The notes under the pieces were generated by a model. It had not been told where the DNA came from. It searched no databases and saw only the letters and a list, made by a program, of their open reading frames with translations. A stretch of 64,000 bases of DNA from Escherichia coli. Lineage in GTDB: Bacteria; Pseudomonadota; Gammaproteobacteria; Enterobacterales; Enterobacteriaceae. The stretch lies in NCBI RefSeq assembly GCF_041886205.1, contig NZ_CP169029.1. One strand, 5' to 3'. The position numbers and the translations under genes were made by a program. Positions 28,541-64,000 of the stretch are shown piece by piece. The first letter of the stretch is position 1. The number at the start of each line of letters is the position of its first letter.

Positions 28541-28794
28541 CGACTAAAAGCCTCTTTGCGTCACATTTTTACAACAATTATTGCAGAGAAGATTAATGCT
28601 ATTGGAATGAAGAGAGTAACGAATGGCTAAACCGAATGACGAAAAATTCTGGAAAACAGCACGCAATTTCGTGAAGTGATTATTTCGTCCCTAAGGAAAC
28701 CTCATAGGATGCCTGCGGGTGCCTGAGACTTTCTGTTTTCAGGCTAACCGGGAATCAGAAAGACGAAGGCCCAGACCGATATTTCTATCAACCG

Positions 28795-29012
<218 letters not shown>

Positions 29013-29427: not shown

Positions 29428-29491
29428 CTTCCGATGTAGACCCGTATTCTTCGCCTGTACCACGGGTCGGTTTTAGTACAGGCGTTTTCTT
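29428..29491 (+). ncRNA. rydC: Hfq-dependent sRNA RydC, ~64 nt
   Basis: CTTCCGATGTAGACCCGTATTCTTCGCCTGTACCACGGGTCGGTTTTAGTACAGGCGTTTTCTT matches recalled RydC sequence; TATAAT -10 at 29417..29422; terminator hairpin plus U-run. Confidence 0.8.
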
Positions 29492-54957: not shown

Positions 54958-55947
54958 ATGAAACTCGCCGTTTATAGCACAAAACAGTACGACAAGAAGT
55001 ACCTGCAACAGGTGAACGAGTCCTTTGGCTTTGAGCTGGAATTTTTTGACTTTCTGCTGACGGAAAAAACCGCTAAAACGGCCAATGGCTGCGAAGCGGT
55101 ATGTATTTTCGTAAACGATGACGGCAGCCGCCCGGTGCTGGAAGAGCTGAAAAAGCACGGCGTTAAATATATCGCCCTGCGCTGTGCCGGTTTCAATAAC
55201 GTCGACCTTGACGCGGCAAAAGAACTGGGGCTGAAAGTAGTCCGTGTTCCAGCCTATGATCCAGAGGCCGTTGCTGAACACGCCATCGGTATGATGATGA
55301 CGCTGAACCGCCGTATTCACCGCGCGTATCAGCGTACCCGTGACGCTAACTTCTCTCTGGAAGGTCTGACCGGCTTTACTATGTATGGCAAAACGGCAGG
55401 CGTTATCGGTACCGGTAAAATCGGTGTGGCGATGCTGCGCATTCTGAAAGGTTTTGGTATGCGTCTGCTGGCGTTCGATCCATATCCCAGTGCAGCGGCG
55501 CTGGAACTCGGTGTGGAGTATGTCGATCTGCCAACCCTGTTCTCTGAATCAGACGTTATCTCTCTGCACTGCCCGCTGACACCGGAAAACTACCATCTGT
55601 TGAACGAAGCCGCCTTCGATCAGATGAAAAATGGTGTGATGATCGTCAATACCAGTCGCGGTGCATTGATTGATTCTCAGGCGGCAATTGAAGCGCTGAA
55701 AAATCAGAAAATTGGTTCGTTGGGTATGGACGTGTATGAGAACGAACGCGATCTGTTCTTTGAAGATAAATCCAACGACGTAATTCAGGATGACGTATTC
55801 CGTCGCCTGTCTGCCTGCCACAACGTGCTGTTTACCGGGCACCAGGCATTCCTGACAGCAGAAGCTCTGACCAGTATTTCTCAGACTACGCTGCAAAACT
55901 TAAGCAATCTGGAAAAAGGCGAAACCTGCCCGAACGAACTGGTTTAA
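54958..55947 (+). CDS. ldhA: Fermentative D-lactate dehydrogenase LdhA, 329 aa
   Basis: ORF 54958..55947; D-2-hydroxyacid dehydrogenase family, NAD-binding GxGxxG. Confidence 0.95.
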   Translation: MKLAVYSTKQYDKKYLQQVNESFGFELEFFDFLLTEKTAKTANGCEAVCIFVNDDGSRPVLEELKKHGVKYIALRCAGFNNVDLDAAKELGLKVVRVPAYDPEAVAEHAIGMMMTLNRRIHRAYQRTRDANFSLEGLTGFTMYGKTAGVIGTGKIGVAMLRILKGFGMRLLAFDPYPSAAALELGVEYVDLPTLFSESDVISLHCPLTPENYHLLNEAAFDQMKNGVMIVNTSRGALIDSQAAIEALKNQKIGSLGMDVYENERDLFFEDKSNDVIQDDVFRRLSACHNVLFTGHQAFLTAEALTSISQTTLQNLSNLEKGETCPNELV

Positions 55948-55953
55948 TCTTGC

Positions 55954-55976
55954 CGCTCCCCTGCATTCCAGGGGAG
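55954..55976 (+). terminator. Probable terminator hairpin after ldhA
   Basis: CTCCCCTG-cattc-CAGGGGAG hairpin after stop; weak U-tract. Confidence 0.4.
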
Positions 55977-56057
55977 CTTATTCAGATAATCCCCAAAGAC
56001 CTTTCATCCTCTATTCTTAAAATAGCCCTGAGTCAGAAACTGTAATTGAGAACCACA

Positions 56058-56480
56058 ATGAAGAAAGTAGCCTCGCTTGTTGCGCTAAGCCTGCTGATGG
56101 CGGGATGTGTAAGTAGTGACAAAATTGCTGTAACGCCAGAACAGTTACAGCATCATCGCTTTGTGCTGGAAAGCGTAAACGGTAAGCCCGTGACCAGCGA
56201 TAAAAATCCGCCAGAAATCAGCTTTGGTGAAAAAATGATGATTTCCGGCAGCATGTGTAACCGCTTTAGCGGTGAAGGCAAACTGTCTAATGGTGAACTG
56301 ACCGCCAAAGGGCTGGCCATGACCCGTATGATGTGCGCTAACCCGCAGCTTAATGAACTCGATAACACCATTAGCGAAATGCTGAAAGAAGGTGCACAAG
56401 TGGATCTGACCGCGAACCAGTTAACGCTGGCAACCGCGAAACAGACATTAACTTATAAGCTAGCGGATTTAATGAATTAA
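56058..56480 (+). CDS. hslJ: Heat-shock lipoprotein HslJ, 140 aa
   Basis: ORF 56046..56480; ATG at 56058 (MKKVASLVALSLLMAGC lipobox). Confidence 0.85.
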   Translation: MKKVASLVALSLLMAGCVSSDKIAVTPEQLQHHRFVLESVNGKPVTSDKNPPEISFGEKMMISGSMCNRFSGEGKLSNGELTAKGLAMTRMMCANPQLNELDNTISEMLKEGAQVDLTANQLTLATAKQTLTYKLADLMN

Positions 56481-56743
56481 TAGCTGCCACAGCTCCCGGC
56501 GGCAAGTGACTGTTCGCTACAGCGTTTGCCGTTGGGTAATGCACACATCCCAATCGCCGTACCATCCAGTTGACGGGCAACAGAAAGCGAACCGCCGATC
56601 ATTGCACAATTTGCTTCTCCACTACTGGACATCGACGCTTTTAAACCTGGCGCTACGTGCGCCGCAGTCGCCTGCTGAACAGGTTCACTACTACACGCCG
56701 ACAACAATAAAGCGGCACCCCCTACCCAAAACGCTGCTCGCAT
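56477..56743 (-). CDS. ydbJ: Lipoprotein YdbJ (DUF333), 88 aa
   Basis: ORF 56477..56743; signal peptide with lipobox LSAC. Confidence 0.8.
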   Translation of the reverse strand: MRAAFWVGGAALLLSACSSEPVQQATAAHVAPGLKASMSSSGEANCAMIGGSLSVARQLDGTAIGMCALPNGKRCSEQSLAAGSCGSY

Positions 56744-57016
56744 CTTTTCTTCCTCTGATCTTCAAGCCAAACGACACCGCCATAAATAATAGGCAGCACA
56801 GAGGGCGACGTCGAGAGCTGTCCTGCGCGTTGCCCCGCATTTTTACTTTTTTATGGCTATTTTTTTGCCCTCTGTTTGATCAAAACATTCATTACGCTGA
56901 TGTGGGGGACACAAAAGCGAAAATGCAGAAGAAAGCCATTTGCTAAAATTGAAAGATTACTACTGGGCGCGCAGCAATTTCGTGCGCCCCTCATTTGCGC
57001 AATGTAAGGGTGTCAT

Positions 57017-60000
57017 ATGATTACTATTGACGGTAATGGCGCGGTTGCTTCGGTCGCATTTCGCACCAGTGAAGTTATCGCCATCTACCCTATTACCCCC
57101 AGTTCCACGATGGCAGAACAGGCTGATGCCTGGGCCGGAAACGGCTTAAAGAACGTTTGGGGAGACACACCACGCGTGGTTGAAATGCAGTCGGAAGCGG
57201 GTGCTATCGCTACCGTGCATGGCGCTTTGCAGACGGGTGCCCTTTCAACATCGTTTACGTCATCGCAGGGTTTGCTGCTGATGATCCCGACGCTGTACAA
57301 ACTGGCAGGCGAACTAACACCGTTTGTCCTGCATGTAGCGGCACGTACCGTTGCCACTCATGCACTCTCTATTTTTGGCGATCATTCCGACGTTATGGCG
57401 GTGCGCCAGACGGGTTGCGCGATGTTGTGTGCAGCAAACGTCCAGGAAGCGCAAGACTTTGCTCTCATTTCGCAAATCGCGACGCTGAAAAGCCGCGTGC
57501 CATTTATTCATTTCTTTGATGGTTTCCGCACGTCCCACGAAATCAATAAAATTGTCCCGCTGGCCGATGACACGATTCTTGATCTCATGCCGCAGGCCGA
57601 AATTGATGCTCATCGCGCCCGGGCGCTCAACCCGGAACATCCGGTGATCCGCGGTACGTCCGCCAATCCTGACACTTATTTCCAGTCACGCGAAGCCACC
57701 AACCCATGGTACAACGCGGTCTATGACCATGTTGAACAGGCGATGAATGATTTCGCTGCCGCGACAGGTCGTCAGTATCAGCCGTTTGAGTATTACGGGC
57801 ATCCGCAAGCGGAACGGGTGATAATCCTGATGGGCTCTGCCATTGGCACCTGTGAAGAAGTGGTTGATGAATTGCTAACCCGTGGCGAAAAAGTCGGCGT
57901 GCTGAAAGTTCGCCTGTACCGCCCCTTCTCCGCCAAACACTTGCTACAAGCTCTGCCGGGATCCGTACGCAGCGTGGCGGTACTGGACAGAACCAAAGAA
58001 CCCGGTGCCCAGGCAGAACCGCTCTATCTGGATGTAATGACCGCACTGGCAGAAGCCTTTAATAATGGCGAGCGCGAAACTCTGCCCCGTGTCATTGGTG
58101 GGCGCTATGGTCTTTCATCCAAAGAATTTGGCCCGGACTGTGTACTGGCGGTATTTGCCGAGCTCAACGCGGCTAAACCGAAAGCACGCTTTACGGTTGG
58201 TATTTACGATGATGTAACCAATCTGTCACTACCGTTGCCGGAAAACACCCTGCCAAACTCGGCGAAACTTGAAGCCTTGTTTTATGGCCTTGGTAGTGAT
58301 GGCAGCGTTTCCGCGACCAAAAACAATATCAAGATTATCGGTAATTCCACGCAGTGGTACGCACAGGGCTATTTTGTTTACGACTCCAAAAAGGCGGGCG
58401 GCCTGACAGTTTCTCACCTTCGCGTGAGCGAACAGCCGATTCGTTCCGCTTATCTCATTTCCCAGGCTAATTTTGTTGGCTGCCACCAGTTGCAGTTTAT
58501 CGATAAATATCAGATGGCTGAGCGTTTAAAACCTGGCGGCATTTTCCTGCTCAACACGCCGTACAGCGCAGATGAAGTGTGGTCGCGCTTGCCGCAGGAA
58601 GTTCAGGCCGTGTTAAACCAGAAAAAAGCGCGCTTCTATGTGATTAACGCGGCGAAAATCGCCCGCGAATGTGGCCTGGCGGCCCGTATTAATACCGTCA
58701 TGCAGATGGCTTTTTTCCATCTGACGCAAATTCTGCCTGGCGATAGCGCCCTCGCAGAATTGCAGGGTGCGATTGCCAAAAGTTACAGTAGCAAAGGTCA
58801 GGATCTGGTGGAGCGCAACTGGCAGGCTCTGGCGCTGGCGCGTGAATCCGTTGAAGAAGTTCCGCTGCAGCCGGTTAATCCGCACAGCGCCAATCGACCA
58901 CCAGTGGTTTCCGATGCCGCTCCTGATTTCGTGAAAACCGTAACCGCGGCGATGCTCGCCGGGCTTGGTGATGCACTCCCCGTTTCGGCGCTGCCGCCAG
59001 ACGGCACCTGGCCGATGGGCACTACGCGCTGGGAAAAACGCAATATCGCCGAAGAGATCCCCATCTGGAAAGAGGAACTTTGTACCCAATGTAACCACTG
59101 CGTTGCCGCTTGCCCACACTCAGCTATTCGCGCAAAAGTGGTGCCGCCTGAAGCGATGGAAAACGCCCCTGCCAGCCTGCATTCGCTGGATGTGAAATCG
59201 CGTGATATGCGCGGGCAGAAATATGTCTTGCAGGTGGCACCGGAAGATTGCACCGGTTGTAACCTGTGCGTCGAAGTTTGCCCGGCGAAAGACCGTCAGA
59301 ATCCAGAGATTAAAGCCATCAATATGATGTCTCGCCTGGAACATGTCGAAGAAGAGAAAATCAATTACGATTTCTTCCTCAACCTCCCAGAAATCGACCG
59401 TAGCAAACTGGAACGTATTGATATTCGTACATCGCAGCTGATTACACCGCTGTTTGAATATTCCGGTGCTTGTTCCGGTTGTGGCGAGACGCCGTATATT
59501 AAATTGCTGACTCAGCTCTATGGCGACCGGATGTTGATCGCTAACGCCACCGGCTGTTCTTCAATTTATGGCGGTAACCTGCCCTCTACACCGTATACCA
59601 CCGATGCCAACGGTCGTGGGCCGGCATGGGCGAACTCTCTATTTGAAGATAATGCCGAATTTGGCCTTGGTTTCCGCCTGACGGTCGATCAACACCGTGT
59701 CCGCGTGCTGCGTCTGCTGGATCAATTTGCCGATAAAATCCCGGCGGAATTACTGACGGCGTTGAAATCAGACGCCACGCCAGAGGTTCGTCGTGAACAG
59801 GTTGCAGCTTTACGCCAGCAACTCAACGATGTTGCCGAAGCACATGAACTTCTACGTGATGCAGATGCACTGGTGGAAAAATCAATCTGGCTGATTGGTG
59901 GCGACGGCTGGGCTTACGATATCGGCTTTGGCGGTCTGGATCATGTATTGAGTTTGACGGAAAACGTCAACATTCTGGTGCTGGATACGCAATGCTATTC

Positions 60001-60541
60001 CAACACCGGTGGTCAGGCGTCGAAAGCGACACCGCTGGGTGCAGTAACTAAGTTCGGCGAGCACGGCAAACGTAAAGCGCGTAAAGATCTTGGCGTCAGT
60101 ATGATGATGTACGGTCATGTTTATGTGGCGCAGATTTCTCTCGGCGCGCAGCTCAACCAGACGGTGAAAGCGATTCAGGAAGCGGAAGCGTATCCGGGGC
60201 CATCGCTGATCATCGCTTATAGCCCATGTGAAGAGCATGGTTACGATCTGGCACTCAGCCACGACCAGATGCGCCAACTCACAGCTACCGGCTTCTGGCC
60301 GCTATATCGCTTCGATCCTCGTCGTGCCGATGAAGGCAAACTGCCGCTGGCGCTGGATTCACGCCCGCCGTCAGAAGCACTGGAAGAAACGTTACTTCAC
60401 GAGCAACGTTTCCGTCGTCTGAATTCGCAGCAGCCAGAAGTGGCAGAACAGTTATGGAAAGATGCTGCAGCTGATTTGCAAAAACGCTATGACTTCCTGG
60501 CACAAATGGCCGGAAAAGCGGAAAAAAGCAACACCGATTAA
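57017..60541 (+). CDS. ydbK: Pyruvate:flavodoxin oxidoreductase YdbK/Pfo, 1174 aa
   Basis: ORF 57017..60541; two 4Fe-4S ferredoxin motifs (CxxCxxCxxxCP) and TPP-binding region. Confidence 0.95.
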   Translation: MITIDGNGAVASVAFRTSEVIAIYPITPSSTMAEQADAWAGNGLKNVWGDTPRVVEMQSEAGAIATVHGALQTGALSTSFTSSQGLLLMIPTLYKLAGELTPFVLHVAARTVATHALSIFGDHSDVMAVRQTGCAMLCAANVQEAQDFALISQIATLKSRVPFIHFFDGFRTSHEINKIVPLADDTILDLMPQAEIDAHRARALNPEHPVIRGTSANPDTYFQSREATNPWYNAVYDHVEQAMNDFAAATGRQYQPFEYYGHPQAERVIILMGSAIGTCEEVVDELLTRGEKVGVLKVRLYRPFSAKHLLQALPGSVRSVAVLDRTKEPGAQAEPLYLDVMTALAEAFNNGERETLPRVIGGRYGLSSKEFGPDCVLAVFAELNAAKPKARFTVGIYDDVTNLSLPLPENTLPNSAKLEALFYGLGSDGSVSATKNNIKIIGNSTQWYAQGYFVYDSKKAGGLTVSHLRVSEQPIRSAYLISQANFVGCHQLQFIDKYQMAERLKPGGIFLLNTPYSADEVWSRLPQEVQAVLNQKKARFYVINAAKIARECGLAARINTVMQMAFFHLTQILPGDSALAELQGAIAKSYSSKGQDLVERNWQALALARESVEEVPLQPVNPHSANRPPVVSDAAPDFVKTVTAAMLAGLGDALPVSALPPDGTWPMGTTRWEKRNIAEEIPIWKEELCTQCNHCVAACPHSAIRAKVVPPEAMENAPASLHSLDVKSRDMRGQKYVLQVAPEDCTGCNLCVEVCPAKDRQNPEIKAINMMSRLEHVEEEKINYDFFLNLPEIDRSKLERIDIRTSQLITPLFEYSGACSGCGETPYIKLLTQLYGDRMLIANATGCSSIYGGNLPSTPYTTDANGRGPAWANSLFEDNAEFGLGFRLTVDQHRVRVLRLLDQFADKIPAELLTALKSDATPEVRREQVAALRQQLNDVAEAHELLRDADALVEKSIWLIGGDGWAYDIGFGGLDHVLSLTENVNILVLDTQCYSNTGGQASKATPLGAVTKFGEHGKRKARKDLGVSMMMYGHVYVAQISLGAQLNQTVKAIQEAEAYPGPSLIIAYSPCEEHGYDLALSHDQMRQLTATGFWPLYRFDPRRADEGKLPLALDSRPPSEALEETLLHEQRFRRLNSQQPEVAEQLWKDAAADLQKRYDFLAQMAGKAEKSNTD

Positions 60542-60570
60542 ATGCTCTGGATAAGGATTATCCAATTCTA

Positions 60571-60679
60571 AAAAAAAGCCCGGACGACTGTTCGGGCTTG
60601 TCTTTTTATATGTTGGAAAATCAGTGGCAATGCAATGGCCCAACAGAAAATAAAATCTGTGACAATAAAGGCATATAAC
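60571..60679 (-). ncRNA. micC: Hfq-dependent sRNA MicC (repressor of ompC), ~109 nt
   Basis: Minus strand GTTATATGCCTTTATTGTCACAGATTTTATTTTCTGTTGGGCC...AAGCCCGAACAGTCGTCCGGGCTTTTTTTT matches recalled MicC; divergent from ompN. Confidence 0.8.
60578..60608. terminator. Bidirectional intrinsic terminator shared by ydbK (+) and micC (-)
   Basis: Hairpin GCCCGGACGACTGTTCGGGC flanked by A-run upstream and T-run downstream. Confidence 0.7.
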
Positions 60680-60906
60680 CCGCGCAGAATAACGTATAGA
60701 AAATTAAAAGTATAATTTTTATTTTGTATGTATTATCTTCGATACATTCACCAGACTTATTATCATTTCAGAAGAATTATTTGATTAAGGTTTTACTTAA
60801 GGCGTAACAAATGATATTTATCGGCTAACTGAACTTCTCCTTTAGGATGTTTTCACTCCCCGAAATGGGGATAAAAGGCAAATAAAATAACTAAAGGATT
60901 TATTCA

Positions 60907-62040
60907 ATGAAAAGCAAAGTACTGGCACTTTTAATTCCTGCCCTGCTCGCCGCAGGTGCTGCACATGCAGCCGAAGTTTATAATAAAGACGGCAACAAAT
61001 TAGATCTGTATGGCAAAGTTGATGGCCTGCATTATTTTTCTGATAATTCAGCGAAAGATGGCGACCAGAGCTATGCGCGTCTGGGTTTTAAAGGCGAAAC
61101 CCAAATTAACGATCAACTCACTGGCTACGGTCAATGGGAATACAATATTCAGGCAAACAACACTGAATCTTCAAAAAACCAGTCATGGACCCGTCTGGCA
61201 TTTGCCGGACTGAAATTTGCAGAATACGGTTCTTTCGATTACGGACGTAATTATGGCGTAATGTACGACATCGAAGGCTGGACCGATATGCTGCCTGAAT
61301 TTGGCGGTGACTCTTATACCAATGCAGACAACTTTATGACTGGTCGTGCCAATGGCGTCGCGACTTATCGTAATACTGATTTCTTCGGTCTGGTAAATGG
61401 TCTGAACTTCGCGGTGCAGTACCAAGGTAACAACGAAGGTGCCAGTAATGGTCAGGAAGGCACCAACAACGGACGTGATGTTCGCCATGAAAACGGTGAC
61501 GGCTGGGGTCTTTCCACAACATATGATTTAGGCATGGGCTTTAGCGCTGGTGCGGCATACACCTCTTCTGACCGCACCAATGACCAGGTTAACCATACTG
61601 CGGCGGGTGGTGATAAAGCAGACGCGTGGACTGCTGGGCTAAAATACGATGCTAACAATATTTACCTGGCAACCATGTATTCAGCAACGCGTAATATGAC
61701 CCCGTTTGGCGACAGCGATTATGCAGTTGCGAACAAAACCCAGAACTTTGAAGTTACTGCACAATACCAGTTTGATTTTGGTCTGCGTCCGGCAGTCTCT
61801 TTCCTGATGTCTAAAGGCCGTGACCTTCACGCTGCCGGTGGTGCAGACAACCCGGCAGGTGTTGATGATAAAGATCTGGTTAAATACGCCGATGTTGGCG
61901 CAACTTACTATTTCAATAAAAACATGTCCACCTATGTTGACTATAAAATCAACCTGCTGGATGAAGATGACAGTTTCTACGCTGCCAACGGCATCTCTAC
62001 CGATGATATTGTTGCTTTAGGTCTGGTTTATCAGTTCTAA
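60907..62040 (+). CDS. ompN: Outer-membrane porin OmpN, 377 aa
   Basis: ORF 60907..62040; signal peptide, general porin family, C-terminal YQF. Confidence 0.9.
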
Positions 62041-62048
62041 ATCCTCCT

Positions 62049-62072
62049 GCCCGCTGTTTTGGCGGGCTTTTT
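62049..62072 (+). terminator. Rho-independent terminator after ompN
   Basis: Hairpin GCCCGC-tgtttt-GGCGGGC followed by TTTTT. Confidence 0.7.
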
Positions 62073-62099
62073 CTGCTTATTCTTCCTCCTTTGATCTAA

Positions 62100-62615
<516 letters not shown>

Positions 62616-62621
62616 CACTAA

Positions 62622-62647
62622 CGCCCGCACATTGCTGCGGGCTTTTT
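62622..62647 (+). terminator. Rho-independent terminator after uspF
   Basis: Hairpin CCCGCA-cattgc-TGCGGG followed by CTTTTT. Confidence 0.65.
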
Positions 62648-62790
62648 GATTCATTTCGCAAATGTGCTGACATTTTCCCCTCTAATCCGTACCATACACG
62701 CCACAGTTTTTATATCAGATTTCTTATGCTGGGCGTTCCGGCATGACGCATACTCTTCTGATGCCATATAACGAATTGAGTCGCTTTTAA

Positions 62791-63726
62791 ATGTCGCAAA
62801 ATCAAGAAATTAGTAAGAAAGAACAATACAACCTGAACAAATTACAAAAACGCCTGCGTCGTAACGTGGGCGAAGCCATTGCTGACTTCAATATGATTGA
62901 AGAAGGCGATCGCATCATGGTTTGCCTCTCAGGGGGTAAAGACAGCTATACCATGCTGGAGATTCTGCGCAATTTGCAGCAAAGCGCGCCAATCAATTTT
63001 TCGCTGGTGGCTGTTAACCTCGATCAAAAGCAACCGGGCTTCCCGGAACACGTTCTGCCCGAGTATCTTGAAAAGCTGGGCGTTGAGTACAAGATTGTGG
63101 AAGAGAACACTTACGGTATCGTGAAAGAGAAGATTCCGGATGGTAAAACAACATGTTCTCTGTGTTCTCGTCTTCGTCGCGGTATCCTTTATCGCACCGC
63201 AACGGAACTGGGGGCGACGAAGATCGCGCTGGGTCACCATCGTGACGATATCCTGCAAACGCTGTTCTTAAATATGTTCTACGGCGGCAAGATGAAAGGT
63301 ATGCCTCCGAAACTGATGAGCGATGATGGCAAACATATCGTTATTCGTCCGCTGGCCTACTGCCGCGAGAAAGATATTCAGCGATTTGCCGATGCAAAAG
63401 CGTTCCCGATTATTCCGTGCAACCTGTGCGGTTCACAGCCTAACCTGCAACGACAAGTGATTGCTGACATGTTGCGTGACTGGGATAAACGTTATCCGGG
63501 GCGTATCGAGACGATGTTCAGCGCGATGCAGAATGTGGTGCCGTCGCATCTGTGCGATACCGACCTGTTCGATTTTAAAGGCATTACCCACGGTTCTGAA
63601 GTGGTTAACGGGGGGGATCTGGCGTTTGATCGCGAAGAGATCCCACTACAACCGGCGGGCTGGCAGCCTGAAGAAGATGAAAATCAGTTGGATGAGTTAC
63701 GGCTGAATGTGGTTGAAGTGAAATAA
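62791..63726 (+). CDS. ttcA: tRNA 2-thiocytidine(32) synthetase TtcA (YdaO), 311 aa
   Basis: ORF 62791..63726; PP-loop SGGKDS motif and CxxC clusters. Confidence 0.9.
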
Positions 63727-63729
63727 CCC

Positions 63730-63832
63730 GGATAGCGCCCGATGCGCAAGCGTATCGGGCTACTCTTATGGAGGCCGGATAAGACGCGGTCAGCGTCGCA
63801 TCCGGCAATCCCGAATAAGATGTTTACTCTTG
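63730..63832. repeat. REP/BIME-type extragenic palindromes downstream of ttcA
   Basis: Palindrome GCCCGATGCGCAAGCGTATCGGGC and GCCGGATAAGACGCGGTCAGCGTCGCATCCGGC (REP consensus). Confidence 0.65.
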
Positions 63833-63854
63833 CACCCGGCAATTCAACATTTCA

Positions 63855-64000
63855 TTATTTTAATAACCGCACCCGGCACGTTTTTCCTTTAATCTTCCCG
63901 CCCTGTAACTGTTTCCATGCTTTATGAGCAACAGCCTGACGGACCGCGACATAGACATGCGCCGGATGCACGGCGATTTTGCCAATATCTGCGCCATCAA
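63855..64000 (-). CDS. dbpA: 3' end of a convergent gene, probably RNA helicase DbpA (C-terminal ~48 codons); continues beyond window
   Basis: Minus-strand open frame to window edge ending ...GKIKGKTCRVRLLK-stop at 63855..63857; identity inferred from synteny. Confidence 0.45.
   Translation of the reverse strand, partial: DGADIGKIAVHPAHVYVAVRQAVAHKAWKQLQGGKIKGKTCRVRLLK

Follow-up and report, generated by a model that had tools for sequence, protein, structure and literature searches.

The window analyzed here is a 64,000-nucleotide stretch of Escherichia coli DNA. It contains ydbK and ompN in the same orientation, with a gene for a small RNA, micC, on the opposite strand between them (Table 1). 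The last 300 amino acids of YdbK are 100% identical to NifJ of strain MB53 and to YdbK of K-12 (b1378), and the 3' end of the gene falls within a 701-bp stretch around micC that is 100% identical to the annotated nifJ region of MB53. OmpN has 100% amino acid identity to its counterpart in MB53 and 99% to that in K-12. A G+C-rich hairpin sits at the 3' ends of two convergent units: it begins 36 nt past the stop codon of ydbK (60539-60541), and the body of MicC ends in it. The ompN gene, co-directional with ydbK, starts 309 nt downstream of this hairpin. The original prediction had placed micC divergent from ompN, and this is the arrangement that we found, with the +1 of micC on the minus strand and the ATG of ompN on the plus strand separated by a 227-bp spacer, and with an ompN that is 100% identical to annotated records. 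The position of micC between ompN and ydbK/nifJ is confirmed by the annotated records of MB53 and K-12.

Table 1. Features at the micC locus. Positions are those of the window; nucleotide n of MicC corresponds to window position 60680-n on the minus strand.
Feature	Position in window	Strand	MicC nucleotides	Basis or remark
ydbK (nifJ/pfo), pyruvate:flavodoxin/ferredoxin oxidoreductase, 1174 aa	57017..60541	+		Open reading frame; convergent with micC
micC (MicC sRNA)	60570..60679	-		RF00121, 125.3 bits; identity to K-12 b4427 except in U-run length
MicC seed, ompC-pairing, GUUAUAUGCCUUUAUU	60664-60679	-	1-16 (extends to ~22)	Perfect complement to the K-12 ompC leader
Central stem-loop, stem UGUUGGG/UCCAACA	60611-60645	-	35-69	Stem of the Rfam consensus
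A/U-rich single-stranded linker, UAUAAAAAGACAA	60598-60610	-	70-82	Sequence; upstream of the terminator
Terminator hairpin of MicC	60578-60597	-	83-102	
U8 tract completing the MicC intrinsic terminator	60570-60577	-	103-110	On the plus strand, the A-tract before the hairpin
Shared G+C-rich hairpin	60578..60597	both		Plus-strand scan match 60576-60599; folds; orthologue pairing
Interrupted T-tract TTGTCTTTTT, candidate U-tract of a ydbK-direction terminator	60598..60607	+		Terminator scan
micC-ompN divergent control region	60680..60906	both		227 bp, 29.5% G+C
ompN, quiescent porin, 377 aa	60907..62040	+		Open reading frame; annotated ompN in MB53 and K-12 (b1377); divergent from micC

We scanned positions 55000-64000 with covariance models (Rfam cmscan) against all 4227 Rfam families. 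The sole strong match in this region was to MicC (RF00121) at 60562-60682 on the minus strand. This match spans model positions 1-123 of 123, and its score of 125.3 bits (E 2.8e-20) exceeds the family's gathering score, 90. Scanning the whole window reproduced it and gave three gathering-level matches in all, MicC among them. At the homologous position in K-12 MG1655 there is an annotated ncRNA, micC (b4427, NC_000913.3 1437121-1437231), between ompN and ydbK. Aligning the window with b4427 revealed no substitutions within the RNA, the two being identical from +1 (60679, which is also the +1 in K-12) through the terminator hairpin; the sole difference in the RNA is a terminal T-run of 8 in the window versus 9 in K-12.

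The minus strand of 60571-60679 reads GUUAUAUGCCUUUAUUGUCACAGAUUUUAUUUUCUGUUGGGCCAUUGCAUUGCCACUGAUUUUCCAACAUAUAAAAAGACAAGCCCGAACAGUCGUCCGGGCUUUUUUU, corresponding to a 109-nt RNA that starts with GUUAUAUGCCUUUAUUGUCACA and ends in GCCCGAACAGUCGUCCGGGC followed by U's. These predicted coordinates give the classical length of 109 nt. Their 5' end is exact. Their 3' end leaves out the last T of the T-run (60570), a difference of no consequence; the 3' end of the RNA lies somewhere in this U-run. The prediction of a MicC of about 109 nt on the minus strand was borne out both by the covariance-model score and by identity to the annotated K-12 gene, and the 5' region that pairs with ompC, where divergence from the reference MicC would have counted against it, contains no changes relative to K-12. 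Because of this identity, which includes the entire ompC-pairing 5' region, and because of the RF00121 score, 60571-60679 is standard MicC. Judged by its sequence, the minus-strand feature at 60570-60679 is the ordinary, already known chromosomal micC of E. coli, and neither its allele, its position nor its neighbors are unusual. It is MicC proper and not a mere functional lookalike, agreeing with MicC in every defining feature that can be tested on sequence.

The MicC RNA of about 109 nt would be built, from 5' to 3', of four elements: an unpaired seed, a stem-loop in the center, a linker rich in A and U, and a hairpin and U8 that form an intrinsic terminator. The structure of the MicC family, a central stem-loop and a Rho-independent terminator with a poly-U tail, is present according to the fold of the window sequence, the U-run of 8, and the pairing in orthologues described below. 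The linker is unpaired in the centroid fold, and the minimum-free-energy fold pairs its GACA with the terminal U-run. The complement of the linker is the T-rich tail of the terminator form on the plus strand. Going by Hfq-dependent sRNAs in general, the linker may contribute to Hfq binding. sRNAs of this class are known to depend on Hfq and to use the terminator poly-U as an Hfq site. The terminator of MicC probably doubles as an Hfq-binding 3' module.

Since ompC is outside the window, we took the target site from the K-12 ompC leader and checked it across the species E. coli. Nucleotides 1-16 of MicC are a perfect 16-nt Watson-Crick complement of positions -30 to -15 of this leader, directly upstream of the GAGGG Shine-Dalgarno sequence. 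The duplex between the first 30 nt of MicC and the ompC leader had a predicted energy of -26.5 kcal/mol, a value reached by none of 2000 shuffles. Applying RNAduplex to full-length MicC and the ompC leader gave a forced, meaninglessly long duplex, and this calculation was replaced by a search for exact complements and by the fold limited to the first 30 nt. In 5360 of 5426 E. coli genomes the K-12 ompC leader is matched at 99% identity or more, and for this reason the source genome almost certainly carries the conserved leader as well.

The 109-nt MicC is described in PMC5745476, with reference to Chen et al. 2004, as encoded opposite ompN and as a repressor of OmpC that pairs with the ompC 5' UTR and inhibits binding of the 30S subunit. 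Together with Hfq, the seed would base-pair to the ompC leader immediately before the Shine-Dalgarno sequence and block the 30S subunit, leading to less OmpC. We infer that this mechanism, known for K-12 MicC, carries over to the window allele, and that micC in the window is expressed as in K-12 (Chen et al. 2004, as reported in PMC5745476), that is, as an Hfq-binding transcript of about 109 nt that lowers OmpC. Pairing of MicC with the adjacent ompN leader was also considered and was rejected; its energy of -14.6 kcal/mol was reached by 221 of 2000 shuffles and is not significant. This agrees with PMC5745476, in which ompN is not under the control of Hfq-dependent sRNAs.

The micC locus is widespread in E. 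coli. The 701-bp stretch around micC recurs at 100% identity in several complete chromosomes of the species, and matches over at least 80% of its length occur in 5387 of 5426 genomes. A 129-bp stretch made up of micC and about 10 bp on each side (the upstream part being just -1 to -11) was found in 5412 of 5426 complete E. coli genomes, in many of them, including O157:H7, at 100% identity. Upstream of micC the window differs from K-12 at two single bases, -21 (T/G) and -94. At least three complete genomes among the matches listed carry both of these differences, with 100% identity over the 701 bp. Apparent occurrences of micC on plasmids were rejected as mislabeled chromosomes or chromosome-sized fragments, all non-mobilizable and 0.12-4.9 Mb long. 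A minority allele, 87.6% identical, occurs in E. coli GN02270 (locus L003, 401-524) and about 500 other E. coli genomes (502 in the 80-90% identity band). Its seed (nt 1-22) and whole terminator are identical. Its central loop has lost 5 nt and there are several substitutions, and the sequence upstream of +1 has diverged. Such a pattern would be expected if the seed and terminator alone were under constraint.

Among the matches listed, the PGAP-annotated E. coli RefSeq genomes have no feature annotated under micC (either none at all or just ompN and nifJ), and K-12 MG1655 has the ncRNA feature. The missing annotation is a gap in annotation and no biological difference. With almost all RefSeq E. 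coli records lacking this feature, genome scans will go on rediscovering micC.

We searched for orthologues by matching a degenerate seed pattern to 100,044 species genomes, which returned 45 matches. Eleven of these were chance matches in unrelated phyla, without the terminator or the rest of the RNA. There were 34 enterobacterial micC loci, from Escherichia, Citrobacter, Salmonella, Klebsiella, Superficieibacter and Pseudocitrobacter. Conservation was examined in a set of 36 distinct orthologue sequences. Seed nucleotides 1-20 are invariant in this set; the search pattern itself fixed 18 of the 20 positions, and both free positions are also invariant. RNAalifold applied to a MAFFT alignment recovered the terminator and not the central helix, which was then tested with the structure derived from Rfam. 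In the 36 orthologues, 83% of the cells of the central helix were paired, and compensatory changes were seen in 5 of the 7 pairs; the terminator helix was 99.7% paired with one covarying pair (C-G to U-A). As a control we slid the pairing partners by 1-3 columns, and the whole two-helix structure was then only 28-54% paired.

The two sides of the terminator differ in conservation. The T-run of MicC is 7-10 long in all 36 orthologues; U8 is the commonest length, and the U9 of K-12 is in the minority. On the nifJ strand, the tail following the hairpin has 8 T in 10 positions in Escherichia and 4-7 in 10 in the other genera. A T-run kept at 7-10 for MicC next to a variable tail on the nifJ strand points to selection chiefly for the MicC terminator. 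Within the 3' arm of the terminator, a C at 60582 (G on the plus strand) creates an A·C mismatch in MicC. This base was found in four sequences only, those of the window/MB53, K-12, GN02270 and Escherichia sp. MOD1-EC7003. All other orthologues have T at the equivalent position, including the Escherichia-labeled SCPM-O-B-8794, E69, E. whittamii and E1V33.

The gene neighborhood is also largely conserved. In every one of the 34 enterobacterial loci with enough flanking sequence micC converges on nifJ, and the nifJ stop codon is 22-41 nt from the hairpin across genera, where the tblastn match reaches the stop. The ydbK-micC-ompN arrangement is kept across the six genera except in two subspecies of Salmonella enterica, arizonae (L027) and diarizonae (L045). 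These have no ompN homologue upstream of micC, which instead adjoins uspF; in arizonae the product of this next gene is 92% identical to UspF of the window. The ompN neighbor is typical of micC, not defining, and the pairing of micC with ompN is not universal.

We propose that micC has a weak promoter of its own within the AT-rich spacer that separates it from ompN. A consensus promoter scan detected no sigma-70 site on the minus strand upstream of micC. By eye, a candidate -10 hexamer, TATTCT, is at 60686-60691 on the minus strand (-12 to -7) with a weak -35 that matches at 3 of 6 positions; both hexamers are the same in K-12. The lack of a consensus promoter fits a weak, silenced promoter, but the start site assigned to micC then rests on homology to K-12. 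This fragment was used as the micC/ompN promoter region in PMC5745476, where silencing by H-NS was reported. The same paper names OmpR as a repressor of micC, and H-NS and sigma-E as negative regulators of the micC-ompN region. Silencing by H-NS fits with the low G+C content of the spacer. A GC-rich hairpin, UCCCC-GAAAU-GGGGA, at 60857-60871 on the plus strand lies 36-50 nt before the start codon of ompN, is identical in K-12, and could be a structure of the ompN 5' UTR.

The hairpin shared by micC and ydbK, GCCCGGACGACTGTTCGGGC, lies between A8 and TTGTCTTTTT. On the plus strand it folds as GCCCGGAC-GACU-GUUCGGGC, with 8 bp including one G·U and an energy of -13.3 kcal/mol. On the minus strand it folds as GCCCGAAC-AGUC-GUCCGGGC, with five G-C pairs, the A·C mismatch and 2 bp, and an energy of -9.3 kcal/mol. 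The tail score was 3.24 for TTGTCTTTTT on the plus strand (top 0.8% of the 15-mers in the window) versus 5.22 for U8 on the minus strand (top 0.005%). A consensus terminator scan called the plus-strand form as a 10-bp stem (8 core pairs and flanking A-T pairs) followed by GTCTTTTTAT. The same scan did not call the minus-strand form (7+2 bp, one mismatch, U8), probably because the mismatch takes the loop past the scan's 8-nt limit. A match to Leu_leader at 60545-60603 on the plus strand is below threshold (24.5 bits, E 0.13; gathering score 50). It most likely comes from the plus-strand form of the hairpin fitting the attenuator-terminator portion of the Leu_leader model, and not from a leader.

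It had been claimed that MicC and ydbK end at the same palindrome, flanked by A- and T-runs, and that this is a bidirectional terminator. A single hairpin with A/T runs on both sides is indeed shared by the two strands; as a palindrome it is imperfect, with one position that is G·U on the plus strand but A·C in MicC. The form of an intrinsic terminator, a hairpin followed by a U-rich tract, is likewise present on both strands, but that ydbK terminates here is a part of the claim that we infer from this form, and termination is likely to be partial. The element has the form of a bidirectional but asymmetric terminator, with the better hairpin on the ydbK strand and the better U-tract on the MicC strand. 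Most likely it would act as a bidirectional intrinsic terminator that is efficient for MicC and partial for ydbK. The Term-seq supplements of PMC7815308 contained no entries for micC, ydbK or pfo and no coordinates starting with 14371 or 14372; these tables are possibly incomplete and were uninformative. A literature search on bidirectional terminators together with MicC found nothing relevant.

Taken as a whole, the explanation that this is micC with its own weak promoter, repressing ompC through Hfq and ending at a hairpin that is efficient for MicC and partial for ydbK, is one that we hold with great confidence. We give practically no credence to the reading that the region is only the 3' UTR or terminator of ydbK, or a gene for a small protein, with an incidental resemblance to MicC. 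What suggests it is a mechanical open reading frame of 63 aa listed at 60452-60643 on the minus strand and the sub-threshold Leu_leader match. This reading frame starts in the middle of MicC, crosses the terminator of the sRNA, overlaps the 3' end of ydbK and has no support as a gene, and the reading is refuted by the full-length RF00121 match, by identity to an experimentally characterized sRNA gene in K-12, and by the compensatory base changes in the MicC helices. It is highly improbable that micC is present here as a silent or defective allele owing to the base at -21, the base at -94 or the shorter U-run. The allele does have two upstream differences from K-12 and one T fewer, and no consensus promoter was detected upstream of it. 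However, the K-12 promoter is no better, its hexamers being identical, and U8 is the commonest run length among the orthologues. Further, the 129-bp sequence, which reaches upstream just from -1 to -11, recurs unchanged in many genomes, and at least three of the listed complete genomes carry both upstream differences in an identical 701 bp.

PMC6176095 cites Fabrega et al. 2012 for co-expression of ydbK and ompN as an operon controlled by SoxS, and if this is so then some ydbK transcription would read through the shared hairpin. Taken further, the hairpin could be one-way, serving MicC only, with ydbK transcription mostly reading through it, antisense over micC and its promoter, into an operon with ompN, or ending elsewhere or by Rho. 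We consider this unlikely, though to be taken seriously. It would account for the interrupted tail TTGTCTTTTT and its lower score on the ydbK side, for a nifJ-strand tail that drops to 4-6 T in 10 in Citrobacter, Superficieibacter and Salmonella beside a MicC T-run that never leaves 7-10, and for an ompN gene in the same direction as ydbK a short way past the hairpin. Against this, the hairpin is stronger on the plus strand than on the minus strand, having 8 core pairs, or 10 if the flanking A-T pairs are included, and the plus-strand form is the one that the terminator scan calls; it is found 22-41 nt from the nifJ stop in every genus examined, and the operon statement in PMC6176095 is second-hand. 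A literature search for ydbK-ompN or pfo-ompN as a named unit found no papers. A related reading, which we regard as improbable, is that the ydbK-direction terminator is deliberately leaky, so that SoxS-induced read-through of ydbK into ompN would run antisense to all of MicC and cross the micC promoter. MicC would then be lowered by transcriptional interference or by duplex-dependent decay, coupling the induction of OmpN to derepression of OmpC. One element of such tuning would be the E. coli-specific change of T to C, which weakens the hairpin of MicC but leaves the ydbK strand with a G·U pair. The reading draws on the second-hand operon statement of PMC6176095 and on the asymmetry of the sequence.

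Under the preferred explanation, a standard micC that ends in a probably bidirectional hairpin, the significance of this locus is small beyond its correct annotation; it is the standard allele in its standard place. MicC is familiar from textbooks as a porin-regulating sRNA, and synthetic sRNAs are widely built on its scaffold. A mildly interesting point is the extent to which ydbK transcription may continue past the shared hairpin and interfere with micC.

Other features were observed elsewhere in the window. A match to the sok antitoxin RNA (RF01794) at 28717-28868 on the plus strand (97.8 bits versus a gathering score of 59) marks a hokB/sokB type I toxin-antitoxin locus, and hokB is annotated in the homologous region of MB53. 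The sRNA RydC (RF00505) matched over its full length at 29428-29491 on the plus strand (92.5 bits versus 48), in a cybB-ydcA neighborhood. Downstream of ompN, ttcA is intact as a 311-aa open reading frame (62791-63726, plus strand), as it is in MB53, where the next annotated gene is dbpA. In K-12 the Rac prophage is at the ttcA site and just a ttcC remnant is found beside uspF. The intact ttcA therefore indicates that the window has the Rac-free configuration. Sub-threshold matches to naRNA4/CssrE on both strands at 63773-63811 (27.7 and 25.6 bits versus 59.5) coincide with a GC-rich palindrome, GCCGGATAAGACG...CGTCGCATCCGGC, that looks like a REP element downstream of ttcA.

Compared with MicC of K-12 (b4427; RF00121), the window has the same sequence from +1 through the hairpin, the same seed, the same neighbors, with ydbK convergent and ompN divergent, and the same intergenic distances. 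The differences are U8 rather than U9, the two upstream bases at -21 and -94, and the Rac prophage, which is in ttcA in K-12 and absent from the window. MicC from Citrobacter, Salmonella, Klebsiella, Superficieibacter and Pseudocitrobacter shares seed nucleotides 1-20, the stem GCCCGAA/TTCGGGC, the T-run and the convergence with nifJ. In these orthologues the region from seed to terminator has diverged with the helix kept by compensatory changes, and their terminator stem is fully palindromic, also at the position of the A·C in E. coli. MicF follows the same logic as a porin-repressing, Hfq-dependent sRNA that is divergent from another porin gene and pairs near the ribosome-binding site (PMC5745476). 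It adjoins and is divergent from ompC, and it represses ompF; MicF thus belongs to a different family with a different target and is likened to MicC by this logic alone. Bidirectional intrinsic terminators between convergent genes are a general class, reported genome-wide in E. coli from SEnd-seq. The shared hairpin resembles this class in having one G+C-rich hairpin with A-tract and T-tract flanks between two convergent transcription units. It differs in its asymmetry, with a perfect U-tract just on the MicC strand and a perfect hairpin just on the ydbK strand.
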